A stretch of 64,000 nucleotides of DNA from Escherichia coli (GCF_024502345.1 NZ_JALDNN010000001.1), one strand, 5' to 3'. Numbered from the stretch's first letter, positions 55,743-56,770 are shown. Made by a program: numbers and translations. The notes: generated by a model not told the origin, from the sequence alone.

Positions 55743-56516
55743 GTGGCAGTGACATATTCGATTGGCATTGATTCTGGTTCTACCGCCACCAAAGGGATCT
55801 TACTGGCAGACGGCGTGATTACGCGCCGTTTCCTCGTTCCAACCCCCTTTCGCCCGGCAACAGCAATTACTGAAGCCTGGGAAACTCTGCGCGAAGGGTT
55901 AGAGACAACGCCGTTTCTGACGCTCACCGGCTACGGACGGCAACTGGTGGATTTTGCCGATAAACAAGTGACGGAAATCTCCTGTCACGGGCTGGGCGCA
56001 CGGTTTCTTGCGCCAGCAACGCGCGCGGTAATCGACATCGGTGGTCAGGACAGCAAAGTGATTCAGCTTGATGATGACGGTAACCTGTGCGATTTCCTGA
56101 TGAATGACAAATGCGCGGCGGGCACCGGGCGTTTCCTGGAGGTGATCTCGCGCACGCTTGGCACCAGCGTCGAGCAACTCGACAGCATTACCGAAAATGT
56201 CACGCCACACGCCATCACGAGTATGTGCACAGTGTTTGCTGAATCAGAAGTGATCAGCCTGCGCTCAGCGGGCGTCGCGCCAGAAGCGATTCTCGCCGGA
56301 GTGATTAACGCGATGGCGCGGAGGAGTGCCAATTTCATTGCTCGTCTCTCCTGTGAAGCGCCGATTCTGTTTACTGGTGGCGTTAGTCATTGCCAGACGT
56401 TTGCCCGGATGCTGGAATCTCACCTGGGAATGCCGGTAAATACCCATCCTGATGCGCAATTTGCTGGCGCAATTGGCGCGGCGGTAATTGGTCAACGAGT
56501 GAGGACACGCCGATGA
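55743..56516 (+). CDS. yjiL: BadF/BcrA/HgdC-type ATPase (putative dehydratase activator) YjiL
   Basis: ASKHA-fold start IGIDSGSTATKGIL; start GTG 55743 or 55749. Confidence 0.8.
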   Translation: MAVTYSIGIDSGSTATKGILLADGVITRRFLVPTPFRPATAITEAWETLREGLETTPFLTLTGYGRQLVDFADKQVTEISCHGLGARFLAPATRAVIDIGGQDSKVIQLDDDGNLCDFLMNDKCAAGTGRFLEVISRTLGTSVEQLDSITENVTPHAITSMCTVFAESEVISLRSAGVAPEAILAGVINAMARRSANFIARLSCEAPILFTGGVSHCQTFARMLESHLGMPVNTHPDAQFAGAIGAAVIGQRVRTRR

Positions 56517-56770
56517 AAGAGTTTTTATTTTTATTTCACTCCACAGTCGGCGTCATACAAACCCGCAAAGCGTTGCAGGCAGCGGGCATGACTTTTCGCG
56601 TCAGCGATATTCCCCGTGATTTACGCGGCGGCTGCGGGTTATGCATTTGGCTGACCTGTCCCCCCGGCGAGGAAATACAATGGGTGATCCCTGGGCTGAC
56701 TGAGTCAATTTATTGCCAGCAGGATGGTGTCTGGCGCTGCATTGCACATTACCGGGTTTCTCCGCGTTAA
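56513..56770 (+). CDS. Small DUF3343-like protein, translationally coupled to yjiL
   Basis: 85-aa ORF whose ATG overlaps the yjiL stop; pattern [44 protein letters not shown] resembles DUF3343 (conserved CG). Confidence 0.45.

Follow-up and report, generated by a model that had tools for sequence, protein, structure and literature searches.

YtiA, a small PF11823 protein of Escherichia coli, is probably encoded by the third cistron of the yjiM-yjiL double-cubane operon and is a candidate sulfur or selenium carrier

The 85-aa ORF that follows yjiL in a 64,000-nucleotide stretch of Escherichia coli DNA (the window, by which we mean the whole stretch analyzed) is ytiA, and it is practically certain that this is a real, conserved gene and a member of the PF11823 family. 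The arrangement is best explained by ytiA being the third, translationally coupled cistron of a putative yjiM-yjiL-ytiA operon. Our preferred explanation as a whole, held with moderate confidence, is that YtiA may act as a Cys41-based carrier of sulfur or selenium (S/Se) that serves YjiL and YjiM (YjiLM) or is their substrate. The two parts of this explanation have different standing: a functional tie between YtiA and YjiLM is likely, and the Cys41-based carrier chemistry, deduced from sequence, is a tentative proposal just short of an even chance. The features of the region are the following.

54588 to 55739, + strand: yjiM, first cistron, encoding a double-cubane [8Fe-9S] cluster protein (DCCP) of the HGD-D family; RefSeq coordinates mapped from locus L001
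55749 to 56516, + strand: yjiL, second cistron, encoding an ATP-dependent electron-transfer activator (BcrAD_BadFG / acyl-CoA dehydratase activase type)
56501 to 56505, + strand: GAGGA in the 3′-terminal part of yjiL, read from the sequence as the Shine-Dalgarno element of ytiA
56513 to 56770, + strand: ytiA (b4715 in MG1655), third cistron, 85 aa, PF11823, with an ATG start and a TAA end
56633 to 56644, + strand: codons of C41-G42-L43-C44; C41 is invariant family-wide, and C44 completes a CxxC that is invariant in enterobacterial YtiA
56660 to 56665, + strand: C6 homopolymer in ytiA, at which a C5 allele shifts the frame after codon 50
56835 to 57695, + strand: yjiK, encoding an SdiA-regulated domain protein (PF06977), a separate downstream gene with a RefSeq GTG start at 56835

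The original prediction had placed an 85-aa ORF across the yjiL stop, and it was found at 56513 to 56770 on the + strand: the ATG at 56513 and the yjiL TGA at 56514-56516 share bases as ATGA (cgccgATGAaag). RefSeq names this ORF ytiA, with the product “DUF3343 domain-containing protein” or “putative Se/S carrier protein,” and the MG1655 entry b4715 (YP_009518833.1, “uncharacterized protein YtiA”) is likewise 258 nt long and overlaps yjiL by 4 nt. The suggestion that the gene could be missed by annotation is thus refuted, and the novelty implied for it is not supported. The window comes from a non-K-12 strain; its ORF is the same gene as ytiA of E. coli K-12, with the position between yjiL and yjiK, the 258-nt length and the 4-nt overlap all matching and no essential difference. 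At the DNA level it is 99-100% identical to many E. coli genomes. Of 5426 complete E. coli genomes, 5385 gave a megablast match to the ytiA region, MG1655 included, and RefSeq uses the name ytiA in practically all complete genomes of the species; in a spread sample of 60 E. coli genomes, 51 of the 52 full-length matches were exactly 258 nt long. The gene is therefore already known as a reference-annotated gene, belonging to a family with a Pfam entry and a published functional hypothesis. No paper and no expression or translation data on E. coli YtiA were found in the searchable literature; the matches to “ytiA” there concern an unrelated L31 paralogue of B. subtilis and were set aside. The locus of strain 510016 (L001, NZ_CP025851.1, 1-7111) is 100% identical to the window over 56400-56900; it has an IS66 inside yjiN, a frameshifted yjiK and a kptA with an internal stop, unlike the window, in which both yjiN (53192-54472) and yjiK are open.

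The three genes are tightly packed in an operon-like fashion, since the gap between yjiM and yjiL is just 9 nt, counting from the RefSeq GTG start of yjiL at 55749 (an alternative GTG lies at 55743). The GAGGA stands 7 nt upstream of the ytiA ATG, so that the predicted ATGA coupling to yjiL is borne out, at the level of sequence, by a 4-nt overlap together with a ribosome binding site. An overlapping start and a Shine-Dalgarno sequence within the upstream gene, both conserved in relatives, are the marks of a coupled cistron, and both were found for ytiA. A scan for promoters and terminators over 54300-57100 gave nothing exceeding shuffled expectation, and an Rfam scan over 54300-57900 gave zero matches.

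To place this arrangement among relatives, one genome was taken per bacterial species, which yielded 51 ytiA loci, all in Enterobacterales and ranging from Escherichia to Hafnia. The order and spacing of yjiM-yjiL-ytiA were kept in all 50 species loci with upstream sequence, unlike the flanking yjiN, yjiK and yjiJ, which are variable across the loci. An overlap between the ytiA start and the yjiL stop is present in 50 of the 50 loci that could be scored, with a length of 4 nt in 39 of them, 1 nt in nine and 8 nt in two; this count leaves out Hafnia (L052), whose start is different, and includes one locus without yjiM coverage. The ytiA frame itself is intact (78-89 aa) in 48 of the 51 loci; of the other three, one is cut by a contig end and two are frameshifted, the latter probably through assembly errors, because their yjiM match is also truncated or degraded. 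Selection was estimated by the Nei-Gojobori method: pairwise comparison with the window allele gives dN/dS values of 0.16-0.26 as long as dS is unsaturated, and the median over 278 pairs is 0.30. Constraint is greater in the N-terminal part of the protein, with a pN/pS ratio of ~0.06-0.36 for residues 2-50 compared with 0.29-0.67 for residues 51-85.

Conservation of the frame in yjiLM-containing relatives, on which the prediction of a real ORF depended, thus holds, with the exception of a 1-nt deletion within E. coli. This C5 allele of the C6 homopolymer occurs in 66 of 5354 complete genomes and leaves a predicted truncated product of 57 aa; it was also seen as L002 3114-3370. Most of its carriers are strains of the K-12 laboratory lineages C600/EC600, MC4100/BW2952 and CV601, assembled independently of one another, along with a few scattered wild strains; the MG1655 gene has C6 and is intact. 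Either the laboratory lineages truly carry this mutation, or the run is a hot spot of slippage. A second departure is found in the O157:H7/EHEC lineage (L003 3114-5923), in which homology to the window stops near 56723, inside the 3′ end of ytiA, and the protein has a different C terminus and a length of 88 aa; in this lineage, ytiA and a gene for an SdiA-regulated domain protein are separated by an inserted T3SS effector gene, espX6. These data do not contradict a functional gene, but they show that its C-terminal third tolerates change and that laboratory strains can survive its loss. As a practical warning, ytiA is frameshifted in common laboratory strains of the C600 and MC4100 lineages and intact in MG1655.

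One could read the same observations as signs of a chance or decaying frame in which only the DNA matters, for example as the yjiL 3′ UTR or as the yjiK promoter region: the deletion is carried by widely used laboratory lineages with no obvious harm, and the C-terminal third is variable and, in the O157 lineage, replaced. This reading, which we find barely credible, is opposed by the PF11823 match (E = 4.5e-13), by the intact frame in 48 of 51 loci, by dN/dS values of 0.2-0.3 that go down to ~0.1 in the N-terminal 50 codons, by a confident predicted fold, and by the conserved Shine-Dalgarno sequence and overlapping start. The conservation data already effectively refute it.

At its other end, ytiA meets an ORF listing in which yjiK is run back to an ATG at 56724, i.e., by 37 codons (56724-56834) that cover the last 47 nt of ytiA, and the original prediction had held that only one of the two overlapping ORFs is likely to be real. 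Here ytiA prevails and the yjiK extension does not, since the E. coli lineage L006 has a stop three codons upstream of the GTG at 56835, which makes the extension an unconserved artefact of the ORF listing and sets the separation of ytiA and yjiK at 64 nt. Read from GTG 56835, yjiK has a signal-peptide-like N terminus. Most other species lack the gene after ytiA or have a different one in its place, and we therefore place yjiK outside the module.

The family assignment proposed for the small ORF was confirmed by an HMM search: YtiA matches PF11823 (formerly DUF3343; now named Se_S_carrier and described as “putative Se/S carrier protein-like”) with 48.9 bits, above the gathering score of 25, over residues 4-59 aligned to profile positions 2-57 of 69 (E-value as above). 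The “conserved CG” noticed in the original sequence is C41-G42; among 28 family members, down to 21% identity (alignment A2), C41 is invariant and G42, like L21, is conserved at ≥90%. Just four residues are invariant family-wide, namely F8, P34, C41 and Y67. Within enterobacterial YtiA (alignment A1, 20 sequences), the invariant set extends to D32-I-P-R35, L37-R38 and G40-C-G-L-C44, and C49 is conserved at ≥90%; many distant PF11823 members also carry CGxC. YtiA shares with its family the HMM match, the small stand-alone size (80-100 aa in the family; Lin et al. 2015, PMC5322559) and the highly conserved Cys, which lies in a P-R-x-L-x-x-x-C-G context common to YtiA and PF11823. An AlphaFold2 model of YtiA (pLDDT 89.5, pTM 0.80) has a ferredoxin-like beta-alpha-beta-beta-alpha-beta-beta fold, in which C41 ends the loop of residues 33-42, just ahead of strand 3. 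The PDB matches listed for this model are generic ferredoxin-like folds, the fold is not thioredoxin-like, and no relative of YtiA was found in the PDB by sequence, either with the single protein or with the 28-member profile.

The TusA/YedF/YeeD proteins (PF01206) offer an obvious comparison, as they too are small alpha/beta proteins with one essential Cys. The Cys of TusA belongs to an N-terminal CPxP motif at the start of helix 1, whereas YtiA is without a CPxP motif and has its Cys in the PRxLxxxCG loop before strand 3. Moreover, PF11823 is the sole Pfam match of YtiA even at E up to 1, with no match to TusA/SirA (PF01206), and TusA-like structures are absent among the PDB matches listed for the YtiA model.

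An exhaustive profile search with YtiA over 1.84 billion representative proteins gave just 113 matches with E ≤ 1e-3. Among them, every distant protein of full length (21-38% identity to YtiA) matches PF11823. Two groups of matches were rejected: P0126, P0139, P0144 and P0159 (147-220 aa), considered as fusions, are frameshifted YjiL-YtiA read-throughs from poor assemblies; P0158, P0168, P0169 and P0187, considered as homologues, are long, unrelated proteins built of repeats, in which as many as 13 stretches are matched (e.g., “DLLVHNTSGLVQLRQN”), and look like chance likenesses of a repeated strand-turn motif to a 15-residue segment of YtiA.

What PF11823 proteins do has been approached by comparative genomics. 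Lin et al. (2015, Genome Biol Evol 7:664, PMC5322559) pointed to a single, strongly conserved Cys in DUF3343 and, from the clustering of its genes with those of YedF and selenocysteine lyase, proposed a role as a Se/S chaperone. We found no biochemical characterization of a PF11823 member in the literature and no solved structure, and the “carrier” label is a comparative-genomics hypothesis. The members highlighted by these authors adjoin YedF, selenocysteine lyase or SelD; the gene for YtiA instead follows those of a double-cubane reductase and of the ATPase that serves it. [quoted passage not shown]

We examined the gene context of 11 distant PF11823 members, of which two were DCCP-like, seven were of the S/Se type and two lay on contigs too short to tell. 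All seven informative members outside the DCCP arrangement adjoin a YedE-like Sulf_transp gene, TusA or TusA-DsrE, and/or an Aminotran_5 gene, the last of the cysteine desulfurase / selenocysteine lyase type. In 80 metagenome loci of subfamily A3, the order is Aminotran_5 - YedE - TusA - DUF3343 wherever the contig is long enough, which looks like a tight four-gene module for S/Se uptake and relay; these loci (L073-L152, e.g., L079 3395-6234) are redundant and mostly come from human gut metagenome contigs. Because TusA-type genes directly adjoin many DUF3343 genes, both families are likely to take part in common relays. Within 6 kb, genes for HGD-D or an activase are absent from all 80 YedE-linked loci, so that the two types of context, YedE and DCCP, may reflect different functions. 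Gene context thus appears to tie the PF11823 family to sulfur/selenium trafficking, and the YtiA branch specifically to the double-cubane pair.

The identity of this pair is well supported by profile matches. YjiM matches Pfam PF06050 (E = 5.9e-122) and the NCBIfam model NF040772, “double-cubane-cluster-containing anaerobic reductase,” with 532 bits against a cutoff of 350; it has seven candidate ligand Cys residues (40, 59, 78, 108, 273, 302 and 335), with a spacing near the published motif but not exactly that of it. YjiL matches Pfam PF01869 (E = 1.1e-76) and TIGR00241 (364 bits). YjiM and YjiL have been named as the E. coli double-cubane pair, probably of “class II,” with YjiL as the ATP-dependent reductase (PMC7317905). 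Compared with the DCCP/DCCP-R system of Carboxydothermus hydrogenoformans (CHY_0487/0488; Jeoung & Dobbek, PMC7317905), YjiM matches NF040772, as the DCCP does, and YjiL is the same archerase-type ATPase as DCCP-R (BcrAD_BadFG / TIGR00241), encoded next to YjiM. The described system has two components (PMC7317905), and YtiA is not a recognized part of it. The DCCP literature that we searched mentions no third small Cys protein, the searchable literature gave nothing linking DUF3343 with double-cubane proteins, and the sole link of YtiA to the DCCP system is conserved gene order.

This gene order is also found in much more distant relatives: two loci of low GC content (32% and 39%; P0135 and P0138) have the same three-gene order, with the small gene behind HGD-D and BcrAD_BadFG. 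In these loci (L055 2192-4380 and L068 3004-5246), the identity to the E. coli proteins is 82% and 74% for YjiM and 63% and 58% for YjiL, and just 35% for YtiA. YtiA evolves there several times faster than its partners, yet F8, P34, C41 and Y67 are kept. The three-gene module of the original prediction is therefore upheld as to its contiguity, in 50 species loci and in the two low-GC relatives; its description of YjiM as dehydratase-like gives way to that of a double-cubane-cluster reductase. Since the order and the overlap persist in the 50 species, and the order in the two distant loci, while the flanks change, we argue for a shared function of the three genes.

The same facts bear on the possibility that YtiA is an S/Se carrier that is simply co-transcribed with yjiML and delivers to other acceptors, in tRNA thiolation, selenophosphate synthesis or thiosulfate assimilation. 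Most of the gene contexts in the family do involve YedE, TusA or a desulfurase and lack a DCCP in the vicinity. However, co-transcription by itself sits poorly with an order and a start/stop overlap that are kept in 50 species as the flanks change, and also in the two low-GC loci despite a YtiA at 35% identity, and we judge this possibility improbable.

Our preferred explanation remains that of a carrier tied to YjiLM, which we put forward because the predicted ytiA-yjiL coupling is conserved and the PF11823 context is one of S/Se. According to this model, C41 would transiently hold sulfane sulfur or selenium, as a persulfide, perselenide or thiosulfonate, like the Cys of cysteine-based relay proteins. 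In Enterobacterales, the carrier would be paired with YjiL, the ATPase electron donor, and YjiM, the double-cubane [8Fe-9S] enzyme, which would together form an ATP-driven low-potential reductase pair. YtiA would then either present protein-bound S/Se for reduction or pass sulfur to or from the YjiM enzyme. Other observations count against a carrier. Neither the window nor the 51 species loci have a gene for YedE, TusA or a desulfurase next to ytiA, where the neighbors are yjiM and yjiL, and the additional C44 and C49 of enterobacterial YtiA could bind a metal or an Fe-S cluster.

The latter observation leads to an alternative in which YtiA would help to mature or repair the cofactor of YjiM, giving sulfide (e.g., the bridging mu2-sulfide) or an Fe-S unit for [8Fe-9S] assembly; in a variant of it, YtiA might bind a cluster or metal through C41-x-x-C44 (plus C49), possibly as a dimer. 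It would account for the conservation of C41, C44 and C49 (≥90%) in the 20 enterobacterial sequences and for the CGxC of many distant members. Several family members share an operon with an Aminotran_5 gene of the cysteine desulfurase type, as Fe-S scaffolds and sulfur acceptors do, and YjiM requires an unusual cluster. We nevertheless regard a maturation factor as unlikely. The CxxC could also suggest a thiol-disulfide partner that would donate or accept electrons, or would sense the redox state and modulate the YjiL ATPase. C41 and C44 are indeed both invariant within the YtiA branch, and the predicted translational coupling specifically to yjiL suggests production matched to that of the ATPase. 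Yet the YtiA fold is not thioredoxin-like, the first Cys alone is invariant family-wide, and YjiL-type activators normally take their electrons from ferredoxin or flavodoxin (general knowledge; Jeoung 2020, PMC7317905), which makes such a partner quite improbable.

The carrier explanation can be carried one step further, to a doubtful but specific proposal: YtiA would be a third component of the “class II” double-cubane reductases, whose Cys41 loop brings S/Se (as persulfide, perselenide or S-sulfonate) into the open active-site channel of YjiM, where it would be reduced to sulfide or selenide by the ATP-energized electrons of YjiL. If this were true, the E. coli double-cubane enzyme would have a protein-bound physiological substrate, rather than a CoA ester or a small gas-like molecule. 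As a gene call, ytiA contributes nothing beyond the reference annotation. Its value lies in a small cysteine-loop protein that is apparently coupled in translation to an ATPase across Enterobacterales and whose family is otherwise embedded in S/Se relay operons, and YtiA thereby offers a concrete and cheap handle, in a tractable organism, on the physiological substrate of double-cubane [8Fe-9S] reductases.
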